Positions 30,140-51,754 of a DNA stretch of 64,000 nucleotides are shown piece by piece. A program made the translations under genes and the position numbers. The notes below the pieces were generated by a model. It made no database searches. It was not told where the DNA came from and was given only the letters and a program-made list of their open reading frames with translations. This stretch comes from an uncultured Syntrophomonadaceae bacterium (GTDB lineage Bacteria > Bacillota > Dethiobacteria > DTU022). Every line of letters starts with the position of its first letter. The first letter of the stretch is position 1. The DNA lies in assembly GCA_964506505.1 (NCBI GenBank), contig CAZDKY010000019.1, positions 606 to 64,605 on the forward strand. The letters run 5' to 3'.

Positions 30140-30167
30140 AATAAGTTAATAAGTTAATACCCAGGGT
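30140..30167 (+). repeat. 28-bp glycan-locus junction element, copy 1 (AATAAGTTAATAAGTTAATACCCAGGGT read on the plus strand)
   Basis: Exact shared motif; see the first finding. Confidence 0.9.
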
Positions 30168-30237
30168 CGCGTTTTTTTTCGTGAAGGAACCCGCCGGTGC
30201 AGCGGCGAAAATAAAATAGTTATAAAGGAGAGCAACC

Positions 30238-31011
30238 GTGATCGTCAAATTGCTGCAGGGTTTATTGATTGGAATAGCCTTTATCTTGCCCGGTCTGAGC
30301 GCCGGGACAGTTATTCTCATCTTCGGTTTCTACCGCCAGTTTCTGGACGATATTGCAGTTCTGCGCCTTAAAAAATACTGGCCCATGATTGCCGGCGCTG
30401 CTGTTGCTGCCCTGGCCGGTGTATATACTATCGGCTATCTACTGGAACATTTCGATAAACCCTTAATGGCTTTCCTCTTCGGTATGCTCCTTGCATCTGT
30501 CACTGCTGTTGTCGATATCCGTCGCGGCATGCGTATCCAGCCACTGCCACTTCTTTTCGCCGCAGCCGGTTTTGCCCTCGTCTGGTTTGTCGTCTGCGAG
30601 CCCACCAATACTTTTACCGTCCTTCCTCCGGGAGGCCTCTTACACTTCTTTATAGGGGGCACCCTGTCCAGCGCAACGATGCTGCTTCCCGGGGTTTCCG
30701 GAAGCGCGGTCCTGATCATAATCAATCTTTATGATGAGGCCATTTATGCCATCAGTAACTGGCAGTGGTTAAGGATATCTGCTTTAGGCGCTGGATTTAT
30801 CTTTGGGCTGCTGGGCCTGGCCCGGCTGCTTTCTGCTCTTTACCGCCGCTACCAGTCCGAGGTTTCCTACCTTTTAGCCGGCCTGATTCTCGGCTCCACC
30901 AGAGCCCTCCTGCCTGCCAGTTTCAATCTTACCTTTATAGTGTTAGCAATCTGCGGGTCTCTCCTCGTTCTATATATCACAAACCGCTTACGTTTAAGGG
31001 TTTTTCGCTAA
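30238..31011 (+). CDS. DUF368 family membrane protein (polyprenyl-phosphate transporter-like)
   Basis: 257 aa, GTG start; MIVKLLQGLLIGIAFILPGLSAGTVIL, characteristic DUF368 N-terminus. Confidence 0.75.
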   Translation: MIVKLLQGLLIGIAFILPGLSAGTVILIFGFYRQFLDDIAVLRLKKYWPMIAGAAVAALAGVYTIGYLLEHFDKPLMAFLFGMLLASVTAVVDIRRGMRIQPLPLLFAAAGFALVWFVVCEPTNTFTVLPPGGLLHFFIGGTLSSATMLLPGVSGSAVLIIINLYDEAIYAISNWQWLRISALGAGFIFGLLGLARLLSALYRRYQSEVSYLLAGLILGSTRALLPASFNLTFIVLAICGSLLVLYITNRLRLRVFR

Positions 31012-31036
31012 TTCGTTCAAATCCCTGGTTATTTCG

Positions 31037-32014
31037 CTAAACTCTTCCAGTAAAACTTTTCACCATTGTCGCCAGCCCTTCTTTGAGATCGGTATGCGGT
31101 AAGAATCCCAGTTCCTCGCGGGCCCGGCTCGTATCAGCGTAAGTATGGGGTGGGTCACCGGCCTGTACCGATTCTCGTCGGATGTTTATATCTTTCCCGA
31201 TCAGGTCATGCAAAATCTCCAGCACCCCGTTCACCGAGATCCTTGTTCCTCCGCCAATGTTGTAAACCCGTCCCGCAGCCCTTTTTGCCTGCACTGCTGC
31301 CAGGTTGGCGTCAACTATGTCATCCACATAAGTAAAATCGCGCGTCTGCTCCCCTGTGCCGTAGACAACTACTTCTTCATCATCCAGGATGGCCCTGATA
31401 AAACGATGAAAAGCCATATCCGGCCGCTGTCCGGGCCCGTAAACTGTAAAGTAACGCAGGCTCACTACCGGAATGTTAAAATTATGGTGGTAAAGATTGC
31501 AAAGGTGTTCGGCGGCCAGTTTACTGACTCCATAAGGAGAAACAGGCCGCGGTAGATCATCTTCCGCCATTGGCAGTTTCTCGGCCACCCCGTAGACGGA
31601 GGATGAAGAAGCGTAGATAAAACGCTCCGGCTTGCTGCGACGGGCCCACTCGAGCAGTCTTTGCGTGGCCAGGATATTGTTATGCGTGTAATGAGCAAAC
31701 TCCCGCCCCCAGCTGGCCCTCACCCCGGCCTGTGCTGCCTGGTGGAATACCCACCTTACACCAGCAGGCAGAGAATCGGCCGATTCCACAAGATCTTCCC
31801 GGTGCAAGGTAAAGTTTGGATTGCATAGCAATTCGGCAACATTTCTTTTCTTGATCTCAATATCATAATAATCCGTAAAACAATCAACCCCGATTACCCT
31901 GTGCCCTTCCCGTATCAGTTTTTTAGCAAGATGATAACCGATAAAACCAGCTGCCCCGGTGACCAGGCACAAACAATTAGCGCTCTTTTCTGCAGTCATC
32001 CTGTACACTCCCAC
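31037..32014 (-). CDS. NAD-dependent nucleotide-sugar epimerase (UDP-glucuronate 4-epimerase-like)
   Basis: 325 aa; GAAGFIGYHL Rossmann motif; SDR-extended YxxxK. Confidence 0.8.
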   Translation of the reverse strand: MGVYRMTAEKSANCLCLVTGAAGFIGYHLAKKLIREGHRVIGVDCFTDYYDIEIKKRNVAELLCNPNFTLHREDLVESADSLPAGVRWVFHQAAQAGVRASWGREFAHYTHNNILATQRLLEWARRSKPERFIYASSSSVYGVAEKLPMAEDDLPRPVSPYGVSKLAAEHLCNLYHHNFNIPVVSLRYFTVYGPGQRPDMAFHRFIRAILDDEEVVVYGTGEQTRDFTYVDDIVDANLAAVQAKRAAGRVYNIGGGTRISVNGVLEILHDLIGKDINIRRESVQAGDPPHTYADTSRAREELGFLPHTDLKEGLATMVKSFTGRV

Positions 32015-32036
32015 CTCCTCAAATCATCAAGCTCCT

Positions 32037-32064
32037 ACCCTGTGTATTAACTTATTAACTTATT
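32037..32064 (-). repeat. Junction element, copy 2 (ACCCTGTGTATTAACTTATTAACTTATT on the plus strand)
   Basis: Sits 2 nt after the LCP gene stop and about 22 nt before the epimerase ATG. Confidence 0.9.
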
Positions 32065-32066
32065 GA

Positions 32067-34565: not shown

Positions 34566-35843
34566 TTATAGCACTGCCAAATGATCCAGGACCCTTCTGC
34601 CGCTCAAAAAACACTGATCGGACCAGAGGTAATCCCACTCCCCGAAACGCCCCACTGAAAGAATACCGGATTCTCCAATATATTTGAGGGCACAGTGACG
34701 TCGTTCTACCATATCCCTGTCGAAAACCACATTGCCGTATGGTAAAACGCGATAATCACAGGCCACAATATCTTTTTTCTCCGCCAGGCCAAGTTTTCCC
34801 ACCGTATTGATAACGTGTTCCACCAGCTCTTCACCTTCCAGCGGCAACGGCTTAATGCGTGAAAAATAGGTTTCAAACTGCAGCGAGCTGCAGCCCGGCG
34901 GCGCGTTGTCAGGCGACTTGCGGTAAGGAGCATGAACCCTGGCCGGCAAAATATCGCGGTCGTAAATGTAAAACCAGAGATGCTTTCCGGCCCGGGGAAC
35001 ACGAAAACCCAGCGAGACGAGTGCTATGGAGGTTGCCCAGAGGCCGGCAGCTGCCTCCTTTACCGCCTGCGGCACACCTTTAATCATAGCAACCAGCTCG
35101 GGCAACGGCACACTGCTTACCAGCAGATCATAATATTCCCGCGAACCATCTGCAAAATCGATATATTTTTTCTGCGGATCGATACTCACTGCCTTTTTCC
35201 CCGTCCTTATATCCACTCCCCGGGCCAGTTTCTCCAGGATAGACCTGAAACCTCCCTGCTTCGGATAGAGCATTTTGGGCAAATAATAAGTTGAAGGTGT
35301 TTCATCGGTCATCGCCCCGTAGAGAACTTCCTTCAGGGAAGGTCTGTATAGACGGTTGCCAATCCAGTCAGTGCTCATTTTTTCCGGGGACACTGTCCAG
35401 TATTTTTCAGTATAGCGACAGGGATAGCGTTCAGCGATAACCGTACCGAACTGCTGCTCCAGCCACTCACGGTAGTTGGCATCTTCTTTCCTGGAAGGCC
35501 GATCCATGAAGCTGAGAATTGCTTCAACCTTTTCTTCAGCCGGCAGGGGGTATAAATTGTTCTGAACCGGATGCTTGAGCCAGCGTCCTCTTTCATAATT
35601 ATAAGGTTCGGGATAGTGGATGTGACAGTCAATACTGTCCAGAACTCTTTGAAAAGGTTCGTTGTTGCTAAAGGCAAAATGGACCGCCCGGTCAAATCGA
35701 TACCCCTTCACCGTAAAATTGTCCAGCAGGCCGCCCCACCGCTCCGCCGCTTCAAAAATAACCGCTTCCCGTCCGGCCTTGGTAGCGTGCCCCGCCGCCG
35801 AAATACCAGCTATTCCGCCTCCCAGGATCAAAATCTCCGCCAT
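34566..35843 (-). CDS. FAD/NAD(P)-binding oxidoreductase (amine-oxidase / UDP-galactopyranose-mutase-like fold)
   Basis: 425 aa; ILILGGGIAGISAA dinucleotide-binding motif. Confidence 0.65.
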   Translation of the reverse strand: MAEILILGGGIAGISAAGHATKAGREAVIFEAAERWGGLLDNFTVKGYRFDRAVHFAFSNNEPFQRVLDSIDCHIHYPEPYNYERGRWLKHPVQNNLYPLPAEEKVEAILSFMDRPSRKEDANYREWLEQQFGTVIAERYPCRYTEKYWTVSPEKMSTDWIGNRLYRPSLKEVLYGAMTDETPSTYYLPKMLYPKQGGFRSILEKLARGVDIRTGKKAVSIDPQKKYIDFADGSREYYDLLVSSVPLPELVAMIKGVPQAVKEAAAGLWATSIALVSLGFRVPRAGKHLWFYIYDRDILPARVHAPYRKSPDNAPPGCSSLQFETYFSRIKPLPLEGEELVEHVINTVGKLGLAEKKDIVACDYRVLPYGNVVFDRDMVERRHCALKYIGESGILSVGRFGEWDYLWSDQCFLSGRRVLDHLAVL

Positions 35844-36022
35844 TGCATCCTCCTTTAATCCTGCTGCTCATCTTACTGCAATCGCAGCACCTTTAAAGGT
35901 GCTGTTTTTGTTCTGTTAATGCTGTCTTTGTTCTATTGGTGCTGCCCTTTTCTTACCGCTGCAGCCATAGTCTTTAAAAAACATTTAGGATATGGCTCCT
36001 CCTTCCTCCTGGTTTTAGTCAT

Positions 36023-37414
36023 TTATTCAAAGGGAGCCAAATCTGCCCTATCCTCAATTTCTTTGCGCAGCCCTCGGGCCGCTTCCCTGTTAAAAATCGT
36101 CGGCACAGTCAGCAAGAGAATCCTGAAATCAAGGAGCAAAGAGTAATCCGCTACATAGTGAAGGTCATAACGCAGCTTGTCCTGCGTGTTGGTGGCATAA
36201 TATCCGGCCACCTGGGCCAATCCTGTAATTCCCGGTTTGACCAGGTGACGCAATCCGTATTCGGGCATTTCCTCCTGGAATCGCTCCACGAAATAAGGCC
36301 TTTCCGGACGCGGGCCCACAATGCTGAGGTCCCCACGCAAAACATTGTAGAGCTGGGGCAATTCGTCGAGTCGCGAAGCGCGCAGGAAACGGCCCACTCT
36401 CGTTACGCGGTCGTCTTCCTCGTTCGACAGGACCGGACCGCTTTTCTCCTCGGCATCTATAAGCATAGTCCTCAGTTTATAAAGAATGAACTTTTTCCCA
36501 CGCAGGCCGACCCTTTCCTGGGTATAAATTGCCGGGCCCGTTGAATCCAGACGGATTACCAGTCCCATAAACAATTGGATGGGCAAGGAAATCAATCCCA
36601 GGACAAGAGCAAAAATTAGATCGCAAATCCTTTTAATCGCCAGCTGCAGGAAATCAAGCTGCATGTCGTGGCACTCAATTACCGGGGTATCGTCAACCTG
36701 GGTCATCGCCGCCCTGGTTAGAATAATTTCATAGAGATCGGGAATGATAAAAACTTCTCTGCTTCGGTTAAAACTTTCCCGCACCACCAGGTTTTTCTCT
36801 TCCATGTCCAGTGATCCGGCAATCATTACCGCATCGGCTTCCTCCAGGGCTTCAGGCAACTTACCCAGCTCCGCCGGGGGCAAAACCCTGATTACTTCGA
36901 AAATACCCTTCGGCAGGGACATAATTTTCTCCAGGGCTCTTTCCGCATCACGGCGGCTGCCGATGACCAGAAGCCTCTTCTGGCCGTGTACCCATATCTC
37001 CAGGTGCCAGAAGAGTATCCGCCAGCCCAGGAGCAGCAGGAGCTGATAAAGGGGCGCCAGCAGGAAAATCAAACGATCCAGGACAAACGCTCTGGTCCAG
37101 AAAGCCAGCATGACCCCCAGCAGGTCAATAACAATCACGCCGGTTGTCAGAGACCGCACGATGGGCATGATCCCGCTTCGCTGCTTCGAGTACAAGCCAA
37201 GGTTGCCAAAAAGGATAACAGTTATTGCCAGAAGCGGCGGAAAAAGAATGATCAGCGACTCGATCTGCATTCCCTGCAGCTCGCCCGTGACACTGACAAA
37301 AGCCAGATAAAAGCCTAGGCTTACCAGAGAAACATCAACTATGGCCACAAGCCAGCGCGGTATTGCACCCGGTTTGCCATTGCTTTTTCGTTTTGCCATT
37401 TTCTCTTCATTCAT
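36023..37414 (-). CDS. Polyprenyl-phosphate hexose-1-phosphate transferase (WbaP/EpsB-like priming sugar transferase)
   Basis: 463 aa; multiple TM segments plus the C-terminal bacterial sugar transferase domain (KRICDLIFALVLGLISLP...DELPQLYNVLRGDLSIVGPRP). Confidence 0.9.
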   Translation of the reverse strand: MNEEKMAKRKSNGKPGAIPRWLVAIVDVSLVSLGFYLAFVSVTGELQGMQIESLIILFPPLLAITVILFGNLGLYSKQRSGIMPIVRSLTTGVIVIDLLGVMLAFWTRAFVLDRLIFLLAPLYQLLLLLGWRILFWHLEIWVHGQKRLLVIGSRRDAERALEKIMSLPKGIFEVIRVLPPAELGKLPEALEEADAVMIAGSLDMEEKNLVVRESFNRSREVFIIPDLYEIILTRAAMTQVDDTPVIECHDMQLDFLQLAIKRICDLIFALVLGLISLPIQLFMGLVIRLDSTGPAIYTQERVGLRGKKFILYKLRTMLIDAEEKSGPVLSNEEDDRVTRVGRFLRASRLDELPQLYNVLRGDLSIVGPRPERPYFVERFQEEMPEYGLRHLVKPGITGLAQVAGYYATNTQDKLRYDLHYVADYSLLLDFRILLLTVPTIFNREAARGLRKEIEDRADLAPFE

Positions 37415-37662
37415 CCTGAATCATCCTCTGCCCAACATTTGCCCGTTAAAACGCTATATTTATACTCTATCTCGGTCAATCTCTTCTCAATTAATCAGGC
37501 ATTAATGCCATGTAAAACTTTCTTGCAGCGGCTGCTTCTTTCCTGCCTTATTATACACCCCGATCAGTGAAATGGTCATGATCAGTCCAAATTTTCCCTG
37601 CCTTCATTCCTCTTATGTAACGGTCACGTTCTTGTGAAAAAGTTTGAGAGCTTTTAAAAATT

Positions 37663-38706
37663 TTACTCTGCCAGCTCCCGATACTGGGGGATTACAGGGC
37701 GGTAACGGGTTATACCGTAGAAAATCTGCAGAAGATTGCCCAGGTAGACGAAATAAAAGTACCATTTTTTAGAAACACCGATCCAGGTAGCAATGGCCAG
37801 ATTGAGAAACAGAGCCACTGCAGGACTGAAAAAACAAAGCGGGACGGCGGCTGCCAGACCGGCCAGGATGATAAAAGGATAGGGGTAACAGCGAATAAAA
37901 TGCATCAGTCTGCCTTCGAGCAGGCAGGCGGCTACCACCTGTCCGGTCCCGTAAAACTTTTTGCCTCCGCTCCGCGGAAGAAAATTCAGGACCAGTTTAT
38001 CAGCCAGGTTCAAAAATGGGGTGTAATGATCAGCCATGGGCAGATCAACCGCCCTCAAAATATAACCGGCGGCACGAACCCGGCAGAGCAGATCGATCTC
38101 TTCAAGCTGGTATACAGCCGGGTTCCAGTTGCCTGCTTCCAGCACCGCATCCTTTCTGTAGAGCACCGCTCCCCCGTGGTAGTCTGCTTCCTTACCCCAT
38201 CGGTCAGCCGGTCCGTACTTTTGCGGAGTCAGGACAACATAATCCCTGGAAGCCACTACTTTACCCAGCCGGTCCAGGTAGCGGTTGCAGGTTCGACCAA
38301 CGAATGCTGCCGTTTGCGGTGGAAGATTATCTCCTTTACGCACCCGCTCCAGGAAAGGTAGAAAGTCTTTCCGCAGGGCCATATCGCCATCCAGATAGAA
38401 AACCCATTTGCCCGAGGCTTCCCGCGTCCCTATATAGCGTCCCGTTCCCGGCCCGCAGACCGATTCGGGCTCTACCCGGAAGACCCTGGCCCCTAATTGC
38501 AGGGCGATCTCGGCACTGTAGTCCTCCGAAGCTGAATCAACATAGATCCATTCAATACCTCTGCCTTCTGGCAGGGATTGAAATAGCCGGGGCAGATTAT
38601 TCGATTCATTTCGGCCGATGATTACTATAGAAAGATCAATTTTTCCTTTGTGCTGCGGTTTTGCTTCCTTACCTTTATTCCCTTTTTCTTTCTTAAAATT
38701 TTCCAT
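37663..38706 (-). CDS. Glycosyltransferase family 2
   Basis: 347 aa; LSIVIIGRNESNNL...YVDSASED...LDGD GT-A motifs; C-terminal TM segments. Confidence 0.8.
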   Translation of the reverse strand: MENFKKEKGNKGKEAKPQHKGKIDLSIVIIGRNESNNLPRLFQSLPEGRGIEWIYVDSASEDYSAEIALQLGARVFRVEPESVCGPGTGRYIGTREASGKWVFYLDGDMALRKDFLPFLERVRKGDNLPPQTAAFVGRTCNRYLDRLGKVVASRDYVVLTPQKYGPADRWGKEADYHGGAVLYRKDAVLEAGNWNPAVYQLEEIDLLCRVRAAGYILRAVDLPMADHYTPFLNLADKLVLNFLPRSGGKKFYGTGQVVAACLLEGRLMHFIRCYPYPFIILAGLAAAVPLCFFSPAVALFLNLAIATWIGVSKKWYFYFVYLGNLLQIFYGITRYRPVIPQYRELAE

Positions 38707-38809
38707 TTCCGTCCTCTTGATTCATTCAGTTGATATTTACGAATCGCCTATAAATTTTCCTTTAAAATTACTCAAATGCTCGTTCAAAAACCTTTTTATC
38801 AGGCCAGTT

Positions 38810-40009: not shown

Positions 40010-40018
40010 TCCTCCACC

Positions 40019-40046
40019 AATAAGTTAATAAGTTAATACCCAGGGT
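40019..40046 (+). repeat. Junction element, copy 3 (same plus-strand orientation as copy 1; overlaps the last 4 codons of wzx)
   Basis: AATAAGTTAATAAGTTAATACCCAGGGTCACGTTTTTT is nearly identical to copy 1, including the flanking CGTTTTTT. Confidence 0.9.
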
Positions 40047-41565: not shown

Positions 41566-41604
41566 ATAAAACTCCTCCCCCAAACCGCGACCCTGCAAAC
41601 TGTT

Positions 41605-41640
41605 ACCCTGTGTATTAACTTATTAACTTATTAACTTATT
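41605..41640 (-). repeat. Junction element, copy 4 (three TTAACTTA units; supplies the TAA stop of the upstream gene)
   Basis: ACCCTGTGTATTAACTTATTAACTTATTAACTTATT. Confidence 0.9.
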
Positions 41641-42323: not shown

Positions 42324-42351
42324 ACCCTGTGTATTAACTTATTAACTTATT
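42324..42351 (-). repeat. Junction element, copy 5
   Basis: ACCCTGTGTATTAACTTATTAACTTATT. Confidence 0.9.
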
Positions 42352-42504: not shown

Positions 42505-43764
42505 ATGGTCGTGGTTATGAAACATCGCGAACGTGTAAGAGCAACCCTTGCTCATGAAGAACCTGATAAAGTGCCTGTGGATTTCTGTGCTACCCATAAC
42601 AGCGGGATAAATGTGATCGCCTACAACCGGGTCAAAAAAATGCTGGGCATCAATCAACCCACCTACATGCGCGATCCCATCCCCATGCTGGCCTCTCCAG
42701 ATCTGGAAGAAAACCTCGAAACAACCAAACTTTTCGGCGGCGATATGCTGCCCCTGCACCGCCATTTGAATTTCGGGGTTCCAGCGGAAGACTGGCAGAC
42801 ATGGACTCTAAAAGACGGTTCAGAAGCCCAGGTGCCCGGAGGATTCCAGCCCCAGATCAAAGACAATGGCTCTGCCGAATTGCTCCTGTTGAATGGACTG
42901 GCCAGACTTTCCATGCCGTCCCGCGGCCACCACTTTAACCTGATCAACCGCCCCCTGGGCGCTATTGAAAACCTGGAACAGCTTGAAAACATCCTTCCCT
43001 TCCTCAGGCAGAGCGGCGCTTTCTCCATCAGCGACGAAGAGCTGCAGGTACTCGCCGCCCGCGCCTCCGATCTGCACAATAATACCGATTATGCCCTCGT
43101 GGCCACCGGTGGTCCACTTTTCTTCTCCCTTTACCAGATCAGCCAGGAACTGTTCGGCTACGAAAAATTCTTTACCTATATGGCTTCGGAACCCGAATTT
43201 ATTCACTGCTGGAATGAATTTCTAACTTCTACCTGCATCGAAAAATTGCAGAAATACTTGAGAGTGCTGGGTCCTTATCTTGATGTTATCTTGATGGGCG
43301 ATGACTACGGATTCCAGAATTCGCTCCAGATGTCGCCGGCCATGTTCCGCAATTTATTCAAACCATACCTGATCAGGGTCTGCCGGGCAGTTAAAGAAGC
43401 GGCTCCCGGGATCAAGATCCTCCTTCATTCCTGCGGCAGCATCGCACCCTTGATCCCCGATTTCATCGAAGCGGACATCGATGCCCTCAATCCGGTCCAA
43501 ATCACGGCATCGGACATGGAACCCGCCCGCCTAAAAAAAGAATACGGCCGGGAAATCACTTTCTGGGGTGGCGGAGTGCGCACACAGACCACTCTTGTCA
43601 ATGGCTCTCCCGATGATATTACCGCCGAAGTGAAGGAGCTCATTGACATTTTCAAACCCGGCGGTGGCTACATTTTCTGCCCCATCCACGATATCCAGGA
43701 AGAAGTACCCCCGGAAAAAATCATCGCCATTTACCGGGCAGCTGAAAAATATGCTTCTTACTAA
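42505..43764 (+). CDS. Uroporphyrinogen decarboxylase (URO-D)-like family protein (MtaA/CmuA-type methyltransferase fold)
   Basis: 419 aa; N-terminal ERVRATLAHEEPDKVPVD, URO-D fold. Confidence 0.75.
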   Translation: MVVVMKHRERVRATLAHEEPDKVPVDFCATHNSGINVIAYNRVKKMLGINQPTYMRDPIPMLASPDLEENLETTKLFGGDMLPLHRHLNFGVPAEDWQTWTLKDGSEAQVPGGFQPQIKDNGSAELLLLNGLARLSMPSRGHHFNLINRPLGAIENLEQLENILPFLRQSGAFSISDEELQVLAARASDLHNNTDYALVATGGPLFFSLYQISQELFGYEKFFTYMASEPEFIHCWNEFLTSTCIEKLQKYLRVLGPYLDVILMGDDYGFQNSLQMSPAMFRNLFKPYLIRVCRAVKEAAPGIKILLHSCGSIAPLIPDFIEADIDALNPVQITASDMEPARLKKEYGREITFWGGGVRTQTTLVNGSPDDITAEVKELIDIFKPGGGYIFCPIHDIQEEVPPEKIIAIYRAAEKYASY

Positions 43765-43773
43765 TTAACCTGA

Positions 43774-44817
43774 TCAATCAACTTCATCATGGAAAAGAAC
43801 CAGGGTCTTTATGTTGCCACTCCCTGTCTCTCTGAATGCTTTTTCAGTTTCTGCAGGACTTATAATGGCAGTAACCAGCGGTGAAAGGTCCATCCTGCCA
43901 CCGGTAATCATATCCACTGCTTCCCTGAATTCTCGTCCTGTTTTTCCGAAAGCAGTATTAATTTTTACTTCCCTGGTTACCAGGCTCAAAAAATTTAAGG
44001 TGACCGGCTGATAACAGATCGACGGTACCACGACCATCGACCCGGCCGCCCCGAGGCTGCAGGCCTGGGCAATTGTTTCAGCATGCCCTGCGCAATCGAA
44101 GACCAGACTCATGCCCCTGTTTTCCGTCAGATTTTCAACCTCCCTGTCAAGGTTTACTTCCAGCGGATCGAGAACCTTCTCGGCCCCCATTTTCGAAGCG
44201 GTTTCTCTCCTGAATTGGTTCGGTTCAGCAACATAAACAGAACCAGCCCCCCTGTGTTTGAGAACAGCCAGAATAACCAGGCCAATTGTTCCCGCTCCTA
44301 TAATTAACACTGGCTGTTTATGATCAAGCACAGCCCTGTTTACCGCATGCAGTCCCACGCTCAGCGGTTCGGCCAGAGCCGCCGTGGCGAGGGATCTTTG
44401 ATCCGGCAACCTGACCAGATCTTTTGCCGGCACCAGGACATATTCAGCCATGCTGCCCTGATCGGTAATCCCCAGCCGGCGCATCTCCAGACAGAGGTTA
44501 TCCTCACCCCTCAGGCAGTAACGACAGCGTCCGCAGGCTATAATATTGTTGCCTGTGACATAGTCTCCCGCCTGCCAGCCATCGACTTTTGTCCCAAGGG
44601 CGGCAATCGTTCCCGAAAACTCGTGGCCGATGGTCAGCCCAGGCTGCAGGAAACCTGTTTCATAGGCGTGCAGGTCTGAACCGCAGATGCCGCAGTATTT
44701 GACCCTGACCAGAACCTCCCCGGGCCCCGGAACCGGCACCGGCTTATCAACCAGGGCCAGACTGCGCGGGCCTTCAATGACAATTGCTTTCATAATTCTT
44801 CCTCGCTTTTTCAGCAC
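43774..44817 (-). CDS. Zn-dependent alcohol dehydrogenase (MDR; sorbitol/threonine dehydrogenase-like)
   Basis: GHEFSGTIAALG zinc motif, CGICGSD, GAGTIGL Rossmann. Confidence 0.85.
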   Translation of the reverse strand: MLKKRGRIMKAIVIEGPRSLALVDKPVPVPGPGEVLVRVKYCGICGSDLHAYETGFLQPGLTIGHEFSGTIAALGTKVDGWQAGDYVTGNNIIACGRCRYCLRGEDNLCLEMRRLGITDQGSMAEYVLVPAKDLVRLPDQRSLATAALAEPLSVGLHAVNRAVLDHKQPVLIIGAGTIGLVILAVLKHRGAGSVYVAEPNQFRRETASKMGAEKVLDPLEVNLDREVENLTENRGMSLVFDCAGHAETIAQACSLGAAGSMVVVPSICYQPVTLNFLSLVTREVKINTAFGKTGREFREAVDMITGGRMDLSPLVTAIISPAETEKAFRETGSGNIKTLVLFHDEVD

Positions 44818-44820
44818 AGA

Positions 44821-46183
44821 TTAAAAACGGCGCGGACCGATCAACCGGAACAATTTCAGCAGAACAAAGGATAAAATCATAGCTCCGGCATAAACAGCTA
44901 CTACCGCCTGCACACTCCAGCCCCACCAGAGCGGAGCATGCATCAGCAGCATGTAACTTAAGACAAATGGTGAAGCGAAGATAGCCTGGATACCAAGCTC
45001 CAGGGCCACCGGTGTTTCAAATTCGGGATCAGCAATTCGCAGCAGGAGCAGGCCCGTAGTAGCTGTGCCGGTGGCAATCCCATACATGCCCATCATTCTC
45101 TCCAGACTGTAGCCCCAGGTCCGGCGTCCTAAATAAAAGACCACCAGGGTGGTAAAAATCCCGCTGACCAGACCGATTAGCAGTATGGGCACAATATATT
45201 CCCAGATAATAACCAGCTGGATGGCCATGATCGTAGCCACAATCAGGAAGTCGACAGCCCAGCCGGTGATTCTTTTCTGCACTCCGGCATCAAGCAGGTA
45301 ATCGATCCCAATCCTGCCGATAAAGGCTTTGACCAGCAGGGCAATAACCACAGCGAAAAAGAAGAAAAAAGCCCATAAACTTTTGGCTACATCCACAGAA
45401 ATAAATTTTCCTATGGCCAGCACCAGCAGGTAGGTAAGAATGTAAACCAGACCCACCAGGGCGGCGTGAAAGGCCAGGGTATCAATGTTGCCCGAATGAG
45501 TAGTAAGTTCACCGGCCGCCTCTCTTTTGGTATCTTTCTGCATTATACCCCGCAAAATTTCCAGGGGGAGAGCCCTGGGGGTCAGGGCGGCGTAGCCCTT
45601 CCTGATGCCCCAGTTGACCAGGGGCACACCGACGAAGAAAGCAAAGGCGAAACCGAAAACGGCAAACGACAACCCCAGGGTGGCCGCATGGGCAAAACCG
45701 AATTCCTCCCAGACCTTGCCGACGGAGAGGGCCTGTCCCGGTCCCTGGGTAAAGCCGAGAGGTGACAGGAAACCGAACAATGGGTTTAAATTAAAACCCG
45801 TTGCATTGAGAAGAAAAACAATAAGACCTCCCACAATACCCTGCATGGCCATCACTACGCCGCTGACCAGACCGATCCAGAGGGGTCCCCTGATTAAAGA
45901 TTTAAAAGAATTATCGGCATTTCTTTTAATGCCTGCTGTCAAACTGAGAGAAATAAATGAAATTATGAATAGGTGATAAGCAAAGGTTTCCAGTAAATCC
46001 ACCGAAACATCGATCAACCCCGTGCTAATTAAAATCAGCCCAAGGGTGCCACCGATAAAACAGCTGGGAATGAGAAAATTTTGAAAGAACTTGATCCTGG
46101 CCCGCAATATCATTCCCACAAGAATCATTATCGCCATAATACCGAAAACAAGGATCGGTTCAAATGGAAAAGGGGTATCCATA
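44821..46183 (-). CDS. Sodium:solute symporter of the ESS/GltS-like family (substrate unknown)
   Basis: About 454 aa from the ATG at 46181-46183 (AAAGGAGA RBS); two-repeat topology. Similarity to GltS is qualitative only. Confidence 0.5.
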
Positions 46184-46258
46184 TATTGATCTCCTTTACT
46201 TTTTAATTCATTCTGAACCCATTTGCCTGTTTCGCATAATCCCGCTTTACCATGTTTC

Positions 46259-47110
46259 TCAGTAAGCCGGCCTGGCAGTAGCATTGCCCAGGCCGTAGCC
46301 GCCGGTCACATTGATTACTTCCCCGGTCAGGTAATCCGAATCGGGAGAAACAAAAAAAGCTACCGCAGCGGCAACGTCTCCCGGTTTACCCAGCCGGCCC
46401 AGGGGTGTAGCCCCGGCAATCTCCTCTTTTAGTTCAGCGGCCGTTTTACCCTTCACTCGAGCTTCCATTTCCAGACCCCACTGTTTAAGCTCCGTCTCAA
46501 TGTCCCCTGGACAGAGAGCATTGACACAGATGTTAAAGGGCGCCAGTTCTACAGCCATTGAATAGGTCAGGCCCAGGATCCCCGCCTTGGCAGCACTGTA
46601 GGCATGCATCCAGATGGCTCCGCGCCGTGCCGCCCGGGAAGAGATATTGACTATCTTGCCCCCGCCCTGTTCAATCATCAGGGGGACAACCTCGCGGCAG
46701 CATAAAAATGTACCCGTCAGATTTATGGCAAGCGTCTTTTCCCAGGCAGCCAGAGAAAACTGGGTCAGCGGTGCCGGTCCCGGCGATCCGCCGGCATTGT
46801 TGACCAAAATATCAATGCGACCCATCTTCTCTTTGGCCTCCCGCACCATGATACCCACTGATTCTTCGTCCGCCACATCGGCAAAAAGAGGAAGCGCCTT
46901 AACTCCCATCCTGCCTATCTCTTCAGCCACTGACGCCAGTTCTTCGCCGGCTCCCACTTTATAATCGGGAAACTCGGCAAAATTTCCGCCGATATCGGTA
47001 ACTACCACCGCCGCCCCCTCGAAAGCCAGGCGCCGTGCACAGACAGCCCCGATTCCTTTCTGCCGGCCGGCCCCTGTCACCAGGGCGACTTTTCCTTCCA
47101 GTCTTTTCAT
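46259..47110 (-). CDS. Short-chain dehydrogenase/reductase (SDR)
   Basis: 283 aa; TGAGRQKGIG...NNAG...YSAAK. Confidence 0.85.
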   Translation of the reverse strand: MKRLEGKVALVTGAGRQKGIGAVCARRLAFEGAAVVVTDIGGNFAEFPDYKVGAGEELASVAEEIGRMGVKALPLFADVADEESVGIMVREAKEKMGRIDILVNNAGGSPGPAPLTQFSLAAWEKTLAINLTGTFLCCREVVPLMIEQGGGKIVNISSRAARRGAIWMHAYSAAKAGILGLTYSMAVELAPFNICVNALCPGDIETELKQWGLEMEARVKGKTAAELKEEIAGATPLGRLGKPGDVAAAVAFFVSPDSDYLTGEVINVTGGYGLGNATARPAY

Positions 47111-47147
47111 AGCATCAATCCTTTCCCCCTCGAATTCTTTCCCGGGA

Positions 47148-48804
47148 TTAGTTTATCTTCCAGGGCAACTCCATACCCGAAAAACCGGTATCGGGATCGG
47201 TCCGCACATTGATTATAGACGGCTTACCGCTGGCAAAGGCTTTTTCCAAAGCCGGTTTCAGTTCGGCTATCTTTTCCACATAGAAACCCTGACCACCCAT
47301 GATCCGGGCCAGCTCATCGTAGCGTGTTGTCTGCAGCTCCACACCCACTGTCTGTTCAAAATCGCGCTTCTGACCGCGCCGGATCTGGCCCCAGCCACCG
47401 TCATTGGCAATAATGCAAACCACCGGGATGTTATGCCTGACAGCTGTATCAAACTCCATAGCCGTAAAACCGAAGGCCCCGTCACCGGTGAGGACAGTCA
47501 CCGGCCGATCCGGGTGAGCAAGTTTACCGGCCAGTCCGAAGGGCAGACCCACCCCCAGGTGGCCGAAAGCGCCGATCCAGATCAGCGAGGAAGGACTGAG
47601 GGCTTTCATAGTCAGCACGGCAAAACCGGCTATATCACCCCCGTCCACGGCCAGCATGTTTTTATCGGGCAAAATTTCGTCCAGTTCCCGGCAGAGCCTG
47701 GCCGGGTGAATCAGTTCGGCTTCCTGATCAGTCCCCTGAAGAGCCGAATCCCTGGCCGCTTCTTTCATAACCTGAATCGTCACCGGCCAGTTTTCTTCCA
47801 TCTTCATTGCTGCTCCTGCCATTTCCTCCTGCAGCTGCTGCAGGACAGCCTTAACATCGCCGATTATACCTATTTCCACCGGTCGGTTCTGGCCCATTTC
47901 GGAAGGTTCAATATCAACCTGGATCGTTTTAGTAGACATTTTTAAAAGCGGCGGCCTCCCGTATCCGACCGTCCAATCCAATCTCGTTCCCAGGATCAAC
48001 ACGACATCGGCCTGCATAAGGCCAATGGGGAAAAAACCGCCGGCCAGGGGATGATTTTCCGGAAAACAACCCCGCCCCATGTTGCGGGTATAGACAGGGA
48101 TACCCGTCGATTCGGCAAACTGGCGCAGCTCGACAGCCGCTCCGGACCAGAAAGCACCGCTTCCTGCCAGGATGACAGGATGTTCCGCTTCCCTGAGCAT
48201 GGTAGCGGCGAGGGTTATATCCTTGCTATCAGCACAGGGCCTGCTTTCGCAGTAATAGGCTGAAGGATATCGCACTTTGGTTCCGGAAACATCCTCGCCC
48301 ACCAGGTCCACCGGTATCTCGAGAAAGACAGGACCGGGCCGTCCGCTGACGGCCTGACGAAAAGCTGCAGCTACATACTCCGGGATCCTCTCAGCCTGGT
48401 AAACCTGACGCGCCCACTTGGTCAGGGGCCGCATCAGCTCAACCTGGTCAATATCCTGCATCGCTCCAATATCCCTACGGGCCAGCGAACTTCGACCGCC
48501 GATTAACACCAGGGGCACACCGCTCTGACTGGCCACTGCCATCCCCGGCAGGGCATTAACCACCCCCGGGCCGGCCGTAACCGCCGCCACCCCGGGCTTA
48601 CCCGTATAGCGGGCCCATCCCTCTGCCATATGCACCGCCGCCTGCTCGTGCCGGGTATCGATGATGCGGATATCCCTATTCCGGCAGCCATTGTAGATAG
48701 GATTAATATGCCCCCCGCTCAGACTGAAGATTAACTCCACCCCTTCACGCTTCAGCATCTCCGCCACCAGGTCACCACCCAGCAGCTTCTGTTCTTCCGC
48801 CAAT
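47148..48804 (-). CDS. Thiamine-diphosphate-dependent enzyme, acetolactate-synthase-like (YerE-like carboligase is one possibility)
   Basis: About 552 aa; TPP Pyr, central and PP domains; GDGAFGFTAMEFDTAVRHNIPVVCIIANDGGWG ThDP-binding motif. Start chosen at the TTG that has a GGAGG RBS; the ORF track extends to 48830. Confidence 0.8.
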
Positions 48805-48838
48805 GAAAACCTCCCCTTTCCAAAAATCAAAAACTCTA

Positions 48839-48865
48839 TCCTGTGTATTAACTTATTAACTTATT
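48839..48865 (-). repeat. Junction element, copy 6 (1-nt deletion variant ATCTGTGTATTAACTTATTAACTTATT)
   Basis: Located 8 nt after the CapF-like gene stop and about 35 nt before the ThDP enzyme start. Confidence 0.85.
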
Positions 48866-48873
48866 GAATTTTG

Positions 48874-49614
48874 CTACAAATAGCTCAGGTAAGTTTGATA
48901 AAGTTTCGCCGCAAATTTATCCGTGGCTGTAAATTCCTCACCCCTCCTGACCCTTTCCCTGAAATCGTAGAGCATCCCAGCCAGCTCCCCGAGGGTAACC
49001 CGGTATTCCAGATCTTCCGGCAGGCGGTAAAAACCATCCGGGTCTGGTTCTACACTGCCGTGCAGCTGTTGTAAAAAAGATTCTATGACGTCATCGATAT
49101 AATACAGGTGCATCTCTCGATCCGGATCGCTGATGACGATGGGCAAATCCCGGGCAATGTTGTAGCAAAATGTGGCTACCACCGAGTGGCTGTTCGGCCG
49201 GGCGTAACGGCCAAAGGTATTGGTTAGACGATAGATTATCGCCTTCCCCCCGCTACCTGTGGCATGCTCCCGCACCAGCTTTTCTGCCGCCCTCTTGCTC
49301 CTGCCGTAGGCGCTATCATCGACAGCCTGGATCGATGAGGTGAGCAAAACAGGGCAGCTGTTGCCGTGTTTTTTTAAATGGGCCAGCACATCGGCCAGGA
49401 ACTGCCGGTTGACCCGGTCAAACTCAGCATCGTCACCGGGACGGTGCACCGCGGCCAGGTGAAATAGAAAATCACAGCCGACCGTGTAATCTCGCAGAAG
49501 TCGTGGATCATCTGCACTGTTAAACTTAAACACGGTATGCCCTTCTTCCTCTTCCAGGGCTTTAACCAGGTTGCGGCCGATAAAACCTCCGGCACCGATT
49601 ATCAGTATATTCAT
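48874..49614 (-). CDS. NAD-dependent epimerase/dehydratase, CapF/WbjC-like reductase lacking the C-terminal cupin domain
   Basis: 246 aa; MNILIIGAGGFIGRNLV; immediately downstream of a CapE/FnlA-like gene. Confidence 0.65.
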   Translation of the reverse strand: MNILIIGAGGFIGRNLVKALEEEEGHTVFKFNSADDPRLLRDYTVGCDFLFHLAAVHRPGDDAEFDRVNRQFLADVLAHLKKHGNSCPVLLTSSIQAVDDSAYGRSKRAAEKLVREHATGSGGKAIIYRLTNTFGRYARPNSHSVVATFCYNIARDLPIVISDPDREMHLYYIDDVIESFLQQLHGSVEPDPDGFYRLPEDLEYRVTLGELAGMLYDFRERVRRGEEFTATDKFAAKLYQTYLSYL

Positions 49615-49620
49615 CGCCGC

Positions 49621-50646
49621 CTACCAGCCTTTCCATGAAGCCAGTTCTTCCTGTATGTAAAGCAAGCCCAGCAGCTTCTCTTTCAGTTCGGCAGGGCTCA
49701 TGATCTGCGTATTATTGGAATTGTATTCCACCGCCCGGGTAAACTTTTCAGATCCCTTTTCAAAATACAGGGCATAGTTAAGGTCCCGGTTGTCGGCCGG
49801 AACCCGGTAAAAATTACCCAGATCGACAGCCTTGGCCGACTCCTCCCTGGTCAGCAGCACTTCATAGACCTTTTCCCCGTGGCGGGTGCCGATTACATCA
49901 ATCTTATTGTCGGCTCCGAATATTTCTTTCACCGCTGCAGCCAGTTCCCCGATATAGCAGGAACTGGCCTTTTGGACCAGGAGATCGCCGCTTTCTCCAT
50001 GTTCGAAGGCATAGAGGATCAGGTTAACTGCCTCATCCATACTCATCATGAAGCGAGTCATCTCCGGATCGGTGACAGTGATATTCACCCCGCTCTTGAT
50101 CTGCTCGACAAAAAGGGGAATCACCGAACCGCGCGAGCACATCACGTTGCCATAGCGAACACCGCAAATCAATGTTTTCTCTGCCCTTACTGTCCTTGAC
50201 TTGGCGATAAACACCTTCTCCATCATCGCTTTGGAAATACCCATAGCGTTAACCGGATAAGCGGCCTTGTCAGTGGAAAGGCAGATCACCTTCCGCACCC
50301 CTGCCTCGATGGCAGCCGTTAAGACATTATCCGTGCCTATTACATTCGTATTCACCGCTTCCAGGGGGAAAAATTCACAGGAGGGCACCTGTTTCAGAGC
50401 AGCAGCATGGAAAATATAATCAACTCCATGCAGGGCATTTCTGACACTCTGCAGATCCCTGACATTGCCCAAATAAAACTTAAGGTTACTGCAGGCAAAT
50501 TTTTTGCGCATATCGTCCTGTTTTTTTTCGTCGCGGGAAAAAATGCGGATTTCACCTATGTCGCTTCCCATGAACCGTTCAAGCACGGCATTGCCGAAAC
50601 TACCGGTCCCTCCTGTAATAAGCAGTGTTTTGTCTTTGAACATCAA
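49621..50646 (-). CDS. UDP-N-acetylglucosamine 4,6-dehydratase / 5-epimerase (CapE/FnlA/WbjB-like)
   Basis: 341 aa; MMFKDKTLLITGGTGSFGNAV...EIRIFSRDEKKQDDMRKKF matches the CapE/FnlA N-terminus. Confidence 0.85.
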   Translation of the reverse strand: MMFKDKTLLITGGTGSFGNAVLERFMGSDIGEIRIFSRDEKKQDDMRKKFACSNLKFYLGNVRDLQSVRNALHGVDYIFHAAALKQVPSCEFFPLEAVNTNVIGTDNVLTAAIEAGVRKVICLSTDKAAYPVNAMGISKAMMEKVFIAKSRTVRAEKTLICGVRYGNVMCSRGSVIPLFVEQIKSGVNITVTDPEMTRFMMSMDEAVNLILYAFEHGESGDLLVQKASSCYIGELAAAVKEIFGADNKIDVIGTRHGEKVYEVLLTREESAKAVDLGNFYRVPADNRDLNYALYFEKGSEKFTRAVEYNSNNTQIMSPAELKEKLLGLLYIQEELASWKGW

Positions 50647-50677
50647 CTCTTTCCCTCCTCGAAAAAAACAAAAACGC

Positions 50678-50719
50678 CAAAAAAGCTACCCTGTGTATCA
50701 AAAAAGCTACCCTGTGTAT
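50678..50719 (-). repeat. Tandem 21-bp duplication (CAAAAAAGCTACCCTGTGTAT x2) abutting junction-element copy 7
   Basis: Exact tandem repeat seen in the sequence. Confidence 0.8.
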
Positions 50720-50736
50720 TAACTTATTAACTTATT
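50709..50736 (-). repeat. Junction element, copy 7 (overlaps the stop codon of the GT2 gene)
   Basis: ACCCTGTGTATTAACTTATTAACTTATT. Confidence 0.9.
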
Positions 50737-51700
50737 TCCCCCTGCCAGAAAGAAGGCGGATCGGCTCCCCCCGGAAAAGTTTTCCCAGGGCCAGCCAAAC
50801 GAAATAAGCCAGGCTCGCCGGCAAATGGTAGAGAGCCGACAGCGGGATCTGGCCCAGGTGCTTCATGGCAATCTTAAAGCGCCCGCGGGCCAGGCAGGCC
50901 AGCATGAATCCGACCGAATCGTTAACCAGGTTATTTTTGATCTTCTCCACCTGCCACCGGTTCAACTTTACATTATCATATATTTTCAGGTTCTTATATC
51001 GAATCAGGTAAGCTTCGCTGAAAGTATCACCGCTCAACGTGCTCAGGGCCTGCCCCGAATCGCTGTGGTAACCGACACTGGTCAGCGGTTTATGAACATA
51101 GGCCAGATCATAACGATTGAGAATGCGGTAAAACAGCTCGGCATCAGCATGGAGCAAGTCAGTACGAAAACCGCCCGTCTCCCTGTAAACAGCCCCTGGA
51201 ATTAAAACCGTGGTTGGGGAAAAGATGGTTGACCGTGCTTCAGGTTCGACTAGCATTTTGGCCAGAATTTTAGGGCCGCTGATCAGCTCTATCCCCTCCG
51301 GCACCGCTCCTTTAACCAGCTGCTCGCCATTGTAGTAATAGGAACAGACTAAGCCAATCCTTTCTCCTCTTTCGCCCGCCCGGACCATCTCGTCAAGACA
51401 CCCCGGCAACAGGCTATCGTCATCGCCGACAAACTTGAGCCAGCGGCTCTCCGGTGCCGCCGCATCGAAAGCCAGCCGGAAATTAAACAGCCGGGGCACC
51501 GTTTCCTTATTGCGGATCACCCTGACCCGCCTGTCGTTTTTGTAGTCTTCAATAACCGCGGCGGTTCCGTCAGTTGAAGCATTATCAACGATAACAAACT
51601 CGAAAGGTTCATAGTCCTGGGCCAGAATACTTTCGATGGCCTGCCGGACATAAGCTTCCCCGTTGTAAACGGGCAACAGCACACTGATCATTGGGTTCAA
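50732..51700 (-). CDS. Glycosyltransferase family 2
   Basis: 322 aa; ISVLLPVYNGEAYVRQAIESILAQ...IVDNASTDGT. Confidence 0.8.
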   Translation of the reverse strand: MNPMISVLLPVYNGEAYVRQAIESILAQDYEPFEFVIVDNASTDGTAAVIEDYKNDRRVRVIRNKETVPRLFNFRLAFDAAAPESRWLKFVGDDDSLLPGCLDEMVRAGERGERIGLVCSYYYNGEQLVKGAVPEGIELISGPKILAKMLVEPEARSTIFSPTTVLIPGAVYRETGGFRTDLLHADAELFYRILNRYDLAYVHKPLTSVGYHSDSGQALSTLSGDTFSEAYLIRYKNLKIYDNVKLNRWQVEKIKNNLVNDSVGFMLACLARGRFKIAMKHLGQIPLSALYHLPASLAYFVWLALGKLFRGEPIRLLSGRGK

Positions 51701-51726
51701 AAATCACGCAATCCCTTCTCATCCGA

Positions 51727-51754
51727 ACCCTGGGTATTAACTTATTAACTTATT
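51727..51754 (-). repeat. Junction element, copy 8 (ACCCTGGGTATTAACTTATTAACTTATT; abuts the stop of the upstream GT gene)
   Basis: G variant at the position where copies 2 and 4-7 have T. Confidence 0.9.

Follow-up and report, generated by a model that had tools for sequence, protein, structure and literature searches.

Eight copies of a 28-bp element in a glycan locus of uncultured Bacillota: probable members of a lineage-specific short interspersed repeat family

Introduction

A 28-bp element stands eight times at gene junctions of a surface-glycan locus in a 64-kb stretch of DNA from an uncultured Syntrophomonadaceae bacterium (contig CAZDKY010000019.1); this whole stretch is called the window below. 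Such a pile-up raises the question of what the element is, i.e., whether it serves the locus in which it was found or has gathered there for other reasons. An earlier, sequence-only reading of the window had offered three answers: an operator or promoter that defines a glycan regulon, a conserved joint at which glycan gene cassettes are shuffled by recombination, and an RNA-level intercistronic signal.

The answer favoured here, at a rough probability of 0.55, is that the 28-mer is a lineage-specific family of short interspersed DNA repeats, i.e., non-autonomous mobile DNA resembling either the repetitive extragenic palindromic sequences (REPs) and their hairpin doublets (REPINs) or the miniature inverted-repeat transposable elements (MITEs). 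The range of the family is a small clade of uncultured soda-lake Bacillota. In kind the 28-mer is classed here as a bacterial short interspersed repeat, and it is placed in no named family because it lacks the defining features of REPs, MITEs, ops elements, attC sites, promoters and terminators.

Sequences and definitions

All DNA compared here comes from metagenome-assembled genomes (MAGs) or metagenome contigs, and no census of whole assemblies with a degenerate model was made, so that the copy numbers given are lower bounds. The element read on the gene strand is called R, AATAAGTTAATAAGTTAATACNCAGGGT, and F denotes the reverse complement of R. The genome scan used the exact pattern with one genome per species, and the anatomy profile was built from 32 independent sites in five genome groups. 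The relatives compared are M55B129 (M55), OMKS01 (OMKS), Ga0129302, SL_8KL (SL, from a soda lake), JAWOAK and GCA_034189085.1 (JAXHVH).

Distribution of the element

The pattern ACCCTGKGTATTAACTTATTAACTTATT, which is the F reading, occurs eight times in the window (seven exact copies and one, at 48838-48865, with one mismatch), whereas none is expected from 100 shuffles. In order, copies 1 to 8 are called at 30140(-), 32037(+), 40019(-), 41605(+), 42324(+), 48838(+), 50709(+) and 51727(+). The pattern search thus bears out the eight positions of the sequence-only reading, and also its remark that the element is not seen elsewhere in the window: relaxed patterns and either half of the element gave no further copy in the 64 kb, except for a partial duplicate of the GC-rich end at 50688. 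Copies occupy 8 of the 19 gene junctions within 30–52 kb and none of the 35 in the rest of the window (Fisher p = 7e-5). According to Pfam, the window holds a pur operon and groES/EL, followed by the glycan locus at ~30–59 kb with two LCP genes, a Bac_transf initiating transferase, GT2 and GT4 genes, Wzx, CapE-like enzymes and nucleotide-sugar enzymes. Nearly all genes of the window lie on the minus strand, and seven of the eight copies, read as R, aim at a gene start 20–75 nt downstream.

In the genome scan, 10 contigs of a close relative, the MAG 'Bacillota bacterium M55B129', gave ~25 copies, and a lower-GC soda-lake MAG gave two. Unrelated taxa gave about a dozen single matches, no more than chance would, and these do not extend to the remainder of the element. 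M55 contigs 4 and 42 are syntenic with 24.5–56.7 kb of the window at 86–96% identity and keep all eight copies. About 17 further M55 copies lie outside this syntenic glycan locus, on contigs unrelated to the window, with neighbours encoding MttB methyltransferases, a corrinoid protein, ABC transporters, an SMC-like ATPase, a PIF1/WYL helicase, an enoyl-CoA hydratase and an ADP-ribosylglycohydrolase. The two copies in the lower-GC soda-lake MAG adjoin a chemotaxis receptor (MCP) gene and a LysR gene. A metagenome scan added OMKS01 contigs (82–86% identity), and Ga0129302 and SL_8KL contigs (39–47% GC). In the window's own assembly (MAG ML8_F2, GCA_002030005.1), a copy on another contig separates atpG from a convergent MFS transporter gene and is the source of the MFS stop codon.

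Gene context was counted with three further sites at locus edges left out. Nine copies are sense (R) between co-directional genes (five in the glycan locus, four outside), four are antisense (F) between co-directional genes (one and three), four lie between convergent genes (all outside) and three between divergent genes (two and one). Outside the glycan locus the orientation therefore shows no preference, and a third of the copies stand where no promoter or leader can be. The usual placement is within ~12 nt of a stop codon, often with the element filling most of a short intergenic gap. This extragenic placement, independent of what the neighbours do and persisting vertically at orthologous positions, is that of REPs and REPINs.

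The operator or promoter of a glycan regulon does not survive this distribution. The sequence-only reading had proposed a genome-wide motif search to see whether copies are confined to glycan loci, and had named scatter without regard to gene context as the outcome that would speak against it; copies were found beside unrelated genes, dispersed regardless of context and in mixed orientation outside the locus. Together with the missing promoter features described below, this genome-wide context rules out a glycan-specific operator or promoter.

Other origins were considered as well. A phage or plasmid origin was rejected, as viral contigs gave no match and a doublet of the element had no blastn match in plasmid or phage collections; a CRISPR-like repeat was rejected, as no scan showed regularly spaced arrays. 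The sequence and assembly accessions were absent from the searchable literature. Two metagenome contigs of ~37–41% GC share a common variant, AGTAAGTTAATAAGTTAATACAGGGTGT (L036 95-122 and L046 3336-3363), which could be a more distant family member or a chance match.

On the 27.9-kb contig 28 of M55B129 (loci L003, L009 and L015), six copies form a second cluster within ~28 kb of non-glycan DNA. The genes there encode an SMC-like ATPase, a PIF1/WYL helicase, a 2Fe-2S protein, an enoyl-CoA hydratase, an SH3 protein and three ABC transporters, and the region may be an accessory or defence-like island. What had looked like presence versus absence of the element between L015 and its counterpart L035 proved to be a copy with a 1-nt insertion, overlooked by a search that allowed mismatches only. 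Directly beside a repeat copy, a comparison of L015 (~1440-1700) with L035 (2540-2860) shows a ~270-nt deletion in M55, which truncates a small gene upstream of an ABC transporter gene; this small gene is intact in the OMKS relative.

Insertion, conservation and concerted change

The atpG/MFS junction shows how a copy can arrive. In a distant relative whose AtpG is 73% identical (L064), the same convergent gene pair is separated by a 15-nt gap and has no element, and the C-terminus of the MFS protein is longer and different. This empty junction indicates that the element entered a pre-existing atpG/MFS junction and replaced the 3′ end of the MFS gene.

Once in place, copies change little. At orthologous junctions of the window and M55, the element is identical at 222 of 224 positions and the ±40-nt flanks at 531 of 640; the corresponding figures are 131/140 and 267/400 for the window and OMKS, and 185/196 and 349/520 for M55 and OMKS. 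Orthologous copies are thus 94–99% identical within flanks of 67–83% identity, and all differences within the element fall in positions 18–28. These differences are shared among the copies of a lineage: all seven orthologous OMKS sites have C at position 22, where M55 has A at six of them, and the GC-rich end reads ACAC-N-GTGT in SL and ACCC-N-GGGT in OMKS and Ga0129302. The atpG copy of GCA_034189085.1 (JAXHVH) has decayed, with five substitutions and one indel, whereas OMKS keeps 27 of 28 positions at a similar flank divergence; this comparison concerns one site. Tandem duplications covering the GC-rich end and 8–12 nt of flank occur at copies 4 and 7, at L003:5483 and at L053, and the 21-nt duplication at copy 7 is missing from L062, a 22-kb contig of the same population as the window and 99.3% identical to it.

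Two contig comparisons at first resembled an excision and a biological end point, respectively. L054 (JGI ML8_10002050) and L053 (10900-10970) come from the same sample and have identical AtpG, and L054 (~10900-10915) lacks 48 nt including most of the atpG/MFS copy, with ACCCTG kept; its MFS open reading frame (ORF) has lost the stop codon and reads into atpG. L054 was therefore rejected as an empty site left by precise excision, since the 48-nt deletion is imprecise and destroys the MFS stop codon; it is possibly a population deletion or an assembly artefact. Contig L061 starts exactly at position 1 of copy 6, which was set aside as an assembly break at a short (~30-nt) repeat rather than biology, on our assumption of an assembler k-mer of ~31.

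Anatomy of the element

In the 32-site profile, position −1 carries ~0.25 bit of information and position 1 already ~2 bits, so that the AT-rich end has a sharp boundary. Positions 1–21, 23, 25 and 28 are invariant or nearly so, and positions 22, 24 and 26 are variable. Past the GC-rich end follows a weak 8-nt tail, n-S-n-K-n-TTT, of which S-n-K-n-TTT makes up positions 30–36, for a total length of ~36 nt. The 28-bp core holds ~50 bits, whereas roughly 18 bits are needed to specify ~30 sites in a genome of a few Mb; this excess argues that the copies are related by copying and not by convergence on a binding motif. R contains TAA in all three frames and F in two. The sole symmetry is ACMC-N-GKGT, with 4-bp arms around a 1-nt centre, and it is imperfect (ACAC-A-GGGT) at 19 of the 32 sites. 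An Xer/dif-like site, considered because of the 28-bp length, was rejected by inspection as the 11-6-11 inverted-arm symmetry is missing. In the window and M55, AG tends to come after the A variant and CGC or GC after the C variant, a pairing suggestive of two subfamilies.

When single copies are folded, neither strand gives a structure that is significant or shared among them (z −1.8 to +0.2). The sequence-only reading was thus right in seeing no hairpin, and the palindromic core of a REP is lacking. Its remark that the sequence downstream of the copies is not conserved and carries no shared −10 box holds too: the sigma-70 consensus scan gave no promoter-like site consistently at the copies and no −35/−10 pair, the flanks are not conserved, and the only sigma-70 matches that overlap a copy are minus-strand chance hybrids at copy 1, e.g., TTAACT-17-GATAAT. 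Rfam returned no match at E <= 1 across 29–53 kb on both strands. The T-rich tail recalls an intrinsic terminator, but single copies have no hairpin to go with it, and only doublets could act as terminators, e.g., the one between convergent genes at L047.

These palindromic doublets, at L027, L030, L047 and L028 (the last on M55B129 contig 58), consist of F, a spacer of 9–42 nt and R, with the GC-rich ends outward, and fold with z = −9.4. They make up ~10% of the sites, and singles are equally invariant. The doublets at L030 and L047 stand at unrelated loci of one metagenome and have 9-nt outer flanks in common, implying inter-locus copying of a ~70–100-bp doublet. A tandem pair of the whole element was found at L016.

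The eight copies in their junctions

Copy 1 (30140..30167, R on the plus strand, ACCC variant, tail CGCGTTTTTTTT) lies in a divergent region between a metallophosphoesterase gene (29518-30111, minus strand) and a DUF368/VCA0040-like gene (30238-31011, plus strand). Copy 2 (32037..32064, R on the minus strand) lies 2 nt past the stop of an LCP gene and 22+ nt upstream of an epimerase start. Copy 3 (40019..40046, R on the plus strand, antisense to the operon, ACCC variant) contains the wzx stop codon (40033-40035), and a GT4 start follows 9–18 nt downstream. These two inverted copies, 1 and 3, run opposite to the other six and have in common the extension TACCCAGGGTC[G/A]CGTTTTTT, in agreement with the sequence-only reading.

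Copy 4 (41605..41640, R on the minus strand) has an extra third TTAACTTA unit of 8 nt, and this third unit (AATAAGTT, 41633-41640) supplies the stop codon of the 225-aa ORF 41636-42313, the 'half-GT'. Downstream of copy 4 on the same strand stands a remnant second GC-rich end, CAGGGTCGCGGTTTG (41581..41595), with a tail of the type seen in the OMKS ortholog; as a leftover C-type end beside an A-type copy, it looks like the trace of overwriting or of misaligned conversion. No other block differs as much between the window and M55 as the ORF 41636-42313 (22% divergence), and this ORF has no Pfam match, as is also true of the ORFs 59269-59814, 60411-61946 and 61984-62631 (181–511 aa for the four). 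Copy 5 (42324..42351, R on the minus strand) occupies the divergent region between this ORF (minus strand) and a URO-D gene (42505-43764, plus strand), at one border of a metabolic block. Copy 6 (48838..48865, R on the minus strand), 8 nt past a capF-like stop, forms the other border of that block; it ends in ...CAGGAT in the window and in ...CAGGGT in L062 (GGAT versus GGGT).

The first TAA of copy 7 (50709..50736, R on the minus strand) is the stop codon of a GT2 gene (50732-51700), and its tail with the 21-nt tandem duplication (50678..50708, minus strand) repeats the GC-rich end, with ATACACAGGGT at 50688-50698. Copy 8 (51727..51754, R on the minus strand, ACCC variant) abuts the TGA stop of a GT2-like gene (51755-52591), and its M55 ortholog has ACAC instead of ACCC. 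The element itself thus supplies a stop codon in three cases, as had been claimed: wzx (copy 3), the half-GT (third unit of copy 4) and GT2 (copy 7). The claim that seven of the eight copies sit at the stop codon of a preceding gene needs correction to six (copies 2, 3, 4, 6, 7 and 8), copies 1 and 5 being in divergent regions with no preceding gene.

Mosaic structure of the glycan locus

The divergence between the window and M55 changes in steps along the locus: 0.046 at 36055-40299, 0.218 at 41585-42129, 0.044 at 43905-48865 and 0.177 at 48866-51440. The change-point at 48866 is the exact edge of copy 6. Before it the window is much closer to M55 (0.952) than to OMKS (0.836), and after it slightly closer to OMKS (0.851 versus 0.832); such a switch of identity is phylogenetic incongruence and thus indicates recombination. 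The change-point at 41585 lies 20 nt from copy 4. However, the strongest step, at 36055, has no element, and the other steps are 200–290 nt from copies. Under a junction-level null, in which 8 of 26–27 junctions carry a copy, the 2 of ~5 junction-located change-points found at copies are not significant, and for the module borders alone the chance probability is ~0.1. A tie between recombination breakpoints and copies is therefore suggestive and does not pass this null. Directly before the strongest step (to 4.6% divergence) lies a hyperdivergent intergenic stretch, 35750-36054, with 31% versus M55 and no repeat copy, between an amine-oxidase-like gene and the Bac_transf gene.

A five-gene block (TPP enzyme, SDR, Glt symporter, Zn-ADH and URO-D-like; 42552-48802) is exactly bracketed by copies 5 and 6. 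The same block occurs in the distant relatives L059 and L060 in a non-glycan, element-free setting, between a Na/sulfate-type symporter gene and a MORN/DUF4282 gene, and a variant of it occurs in L065 in a third non-glycan context, again element-free. The window has its own MORN/DUF4282 homolog (~63000-63630), ~14 kb from the block, and this proximity suggests local rearrangement. Synteny breaks were seen at two copies: in the OMKS contig L039, which lacks copy 7, the GT2 gene has a TAA of its own with unrelated DNA beyond it, and the copy at L035:3867 has no M55 counterpart, homology stopping there. The blocks follow one another in the same order and orientation in the window, M55, JAWOAK and, for the part covered (copies 3–6 and 8), OMKS.

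The cassette-joint idea of the sequence-only reading thus keeps some support. It is favoured by the metabolic block that ends at copies 5 and 6, by the step in identity at the edge of copy 6 and by the loss of synteny at copy 7; against it stand a cassette order that is otherwise the same in four relatives, a breakpoint association short of significance, a strongest step without an element, and an atpG/MFS copy that is a plain insertion.

Search for a partner enzyme

Among the annotated ORFs of the 64-kb window there is no sigma factor, NusG paralog, recombinase or transposase. An insertion sequence (IS) at 521-2208 of L028, with a DDE_Tnp_1 transposase and 20-bp inverted ends CAGGCATTCCGTAAATGGTC, lies flush against the outer edge of the doublet there; its position could be due to chance or to target preference. 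The 28-mer was rejected as the end of this IS, which has its own, unrelated 20-bp inverted ends.

A protein of another kind was found in L055 (JAXHVH010000020.1 of GCA_034189085.1), where the stretch 2581-3710 holds the gene for a 253-aa Y1 protein whose closest NCBIfam family is REP-associated tyrosine transposase (RAYT; 70.9 bits against a cutoff of 80). The gene stands where relatives have a DUF1847 gene and is flanked by a 26-nt inverted repeat, ACACAAGGGGACGGTTCTTTTGTGTT (one upstream and three downstream), and by a 112-nt tandem duplication. This repeat is a family different from the 28-mer. Judged by its gene and repeats, the locus looks like a RAYT/REP-type system within the clade. Homologs of the Y1 protein at ~60–65% identity are widespread in Clostridia; in the search for a partner of the 28-mer, the RAYT-like protein led only to homologs of 67% identity or less, none assignable to the window's lineage.

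Discussion

How could an interspersed repeat come to look like part of a glycan locus? On the favoured reading, the ~50 bits of identity would stem from copying off common templates. At least one copy entered an existing gene junction, and inserted copies pass down vertically, nearly unchanged, as the DNA around them diverges. A trans-acting DNA-binding enzyme, putatively a domesticated transposase or recombinase, and/or conversion between copies may account for both conservation and concerted change. Copies would have gathered in the glycan locus because this mosaic region is non-essential, prone to recombination and rich in short junctions, and the identical 28–36-bp patches may in turn anchor recombination where blocks meet. 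The clustering itself is real and only partly explained; accumulation, local copying or recombination anchoring could each have contributed. A precedent for the maintenance step exists in the REPINs, which are vertically persistent repeats whose conservation depends on the RAYT (10.1101/2021.07.10.451892).

Several observations weigh against an interspersed repeat. The single unit lacks the hairpin palindrome of REPs, and its singles match the doublets in conservation, which REP singlets do not (PMC3116915). Beside the doublets there was no gene for a transposase, RAYT or recombinase, and neither the window nor any copy-bearing locus has a Y1 gene. Nor did an autonomous IS that shares these ends turn up, since in the exact-pattern scans of genomes, metagenomes and viruses no pair of copies encloses a transposase. 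Neither singles nor doublets, nor the copy 3/copy 4 and copy 1/copy 2 pairs, are surrounded by a target-site duplication. The strong conservation at orthologous sites would, as a sequence pattern, fit binding by a host protein too. The argument that a copy decays where its partner is missing concerns one site in one lineage, and the sole excision-like variant, L054, is imprecise and may be an assembly artefact.

The most serious rival takes the element as the target of a dedicated site-specific recombinase, or as a fixed homology patch, with the glycan locus as an array of cassettes comparable to those at integron attC sites, Acinetobacter pdif modules or Neisseria dRS3 repeats. The layout is suggestive: copies 4–8, in direct orientation, separate blocks of one to five genes, and inverted pairs bracket wzx (copies 3 and 4) and DUF368 with the epimerase (copies 1 and 2). 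The metabolic block between copies 5 and 6 recurs in the element-free, non-glycan contexts of L059, L060 and L065, change-points fall at the edge of copy 6 (48866) and 20 nt from copy 4 (41585), synteny breaks at copy 7 (L039) and at L035:3867, a second six-copy cluster occupies the accessory-looking region of M55 contig 28, and dRS3 in neisserial NIME arrays gives a precedent (PMC1797815). We nevertheless hold this rival to be unlikely, as no recombinase gene lies in or near the locus, the blocks keep their order and orientation in the window, M55, JAWOAK and OMKS (copies 3–6 and 8), the step at 36055 is element-free and the junction-level association is not significant, and at atpG/MFS the element simply entered a junction that was already there. 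The unit also has neither the two-arm symmetry of Xer, Cre and invertase sites nor an attC-like fold. Somewhat less probable still is a related proposal, in which a non-palindromic 28-bp site belongs to an undescribed recombination or transposition system of Bacillota that the host maintains through a domesticated enzyme, with blocks inserted, replaced and inverted at it; such a system would assemble surface-glycan loci by a sequence-defined route independent of integrons, and would produce the direct array of copies 4–8, the inverted pairs, the moved metabolic block, the concerted evolution and, where the enzyme was possibly lost, the decay.

A regulatory role for the host, whether as high-affinity binding site of a global regulator, roadblock or nucleoid protein or as unusual promoter, in control of many transcription units that take in most of the glycan genes, seems improbable to a like degree. 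It would explain why seven of the eight window copies point at a gene start 20–75 nt away with a GGAGG-type ribosome-binding site in between, why copies 1 and 5 are in divergent regions where a promoter must exist, why orthologous sites look as if under purifying selection, and perhaps the lineage-wide co-variation of the ends (ACAC-N-GTGT versus ACCC-N-GGGT), which could be co-evolution with a protein. Outside the glycan locus, however, orientation is random, 4 of ~12 classifiable copies are convergent and the neighbours have no functional theme; the ~50 bits exceed what a binding site needs, no −35/−10 pair occurs at the copies and the sequence downstream is variable, tandem and palindromic doublets and end duplications are unlike operators, and no regulator gene adjoins the element. 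An RNA-level signal, i.e., a processing or stability site, an ops-like pause or antitermination site for a NusG paralog, or translational punctuation, at work within the glycan operon transcript, is very improbable. Its attraction is local: five of the six co-directional glycan copies are sense (R), between a stop codon and the next ribosome-binding site, a U-rich tail follows the element, and one subfamily reads CAGGGTAGCGTT, which has GGTAGCGT in common with the Escherichia coli ops sequence, GGCGGTAGCGTG. Yet the ops-like letters belong to the weakly conserved tail of one subfamily (A29 in 10 of 32 sites), ops sits in operon leaders and needs RfaH (PMC6391919) whereas the window ORFs include no NusG paralog, copy 3 is antisense inside an operon, and copies outside the glycan locus are four sense, three antisense and four convergent. 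As the orientation is mixed, folding is neither conserved nor significant and Rfam gives nothing at E <= 1, the RNA element suggested by the sequence-only reading was rejected.

If the interspersed-repeat reading is true, the 28-mer is a previously undescribed family in uncultured soda-lake Firmicutes with an unusual combination of traits: an asymmetric, hairpin-less unit of ~50 bits, tens of copies, vertical persistence with concerted change, and pile-ups in accessory regions. Such a family would explain contig breaks in these MAGs, and it cautions that repeats spread over a locus need not be regulators specific to that locus. Should the recombination-site reading be true instead, the element would offer a new route to glycan-locus mosaicism.

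Comparison with known systems

The sites of integron cassettes share with the 28-mer a direct-repeat site between successive co-oriented blocks and isolated sites elsewhere in the genome. The attC sites are recognised by their folded structure and not by their sequence, as imperfect palindromes of 50–150 bp, beside an intI integrase gene with attI, whereas the 28-mer has no fold and the annotated window ORFs include no integrase. With JUMPStart/ops it shares the association of a short conserved sequence with polysaccharide clusters and, in one subfamily, the partial GGTAGCGT match. However, ops is a 12-nt strand-specific leader signal read by RfaH (PMC6391919), and the 28-mer has up to eight copies per locus, in both orientations, mostly outside glycan loci and not in the position of a leader.

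The doublets, with arms of 28–32 bp, a spacer of 9–42 nt and a length of ~70–100 bp, resemble small MITEs, and the intergenic placement near gene ends, with altered gene 3′ ends, resembles that of the Correia elements (CREE; PMC1797815). Unlike MITEs, the 28-mer mostly occurs as single arms, with no target-site duplication and no autonomous IS that has these ends, and in the doublet arms it is the inner, AT-rich end that is sharply bounded and not the outer one. The dRS3 repeats of the NIME arrays, ~20 bp long, likewise keep syntenic intergenic positions and cluster beside surface-structure loci, including capsule genes; end points of allele replacement lie in or near the dRS3-built arrays, and dRS3 was proposed as a substrate of homologous recombination or a recombinase target (PMC1797815). 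The same logic would apply to the borders of the metabolic block at copies 5 and 6 and to the step in identity beside copy 6. The dRS3 unit, however, is symmetric (ATTCCC-N8-GGGAAT) and forms dense arrays with RS spacers in hundreds of copies, with a phage-encoded recombinase, whereas the 28-mer is asymmetric, has whole genes between its copies and has no recombinase known.

The REPs and REPINs of Pseudomonas and Enterobacteria, which RAYT transposases mobilise, differ in that their unit has a hairpin core, whereas the 28-mer has only a 4+1+4 mini-palindrome, imperfect in the major variant of the window; its singles far outnumber its doublets and are equally conserved, its copies run to tens and not hundreds, and no RAYT lies beside them. 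Still, REPINs come closest in behaviour among the known systems, and the dRS3/NIME system of Neisseria comes closest in the tie to surface-structure loci and recombination end points. Both are short (20–60 bp), extragenic and dispersed regardless of gene function, and occur as singles, inverted hairpin doublets and tandem clusters. Both show long vertical inheritance and sequence subfamilies, the conservation of REPINs being tied to a single-copy enzyme (PMC3116915; 10.1101/2021.07.10.451892), and one relative in the clade (L055) has a RAYT-like gene with flanking repeats of its own. If the favoured reading is true, the REPIN-type idea of long-lived, enzyme-maintained repeats would extend to Bacillota and to a non-palindromic unit.

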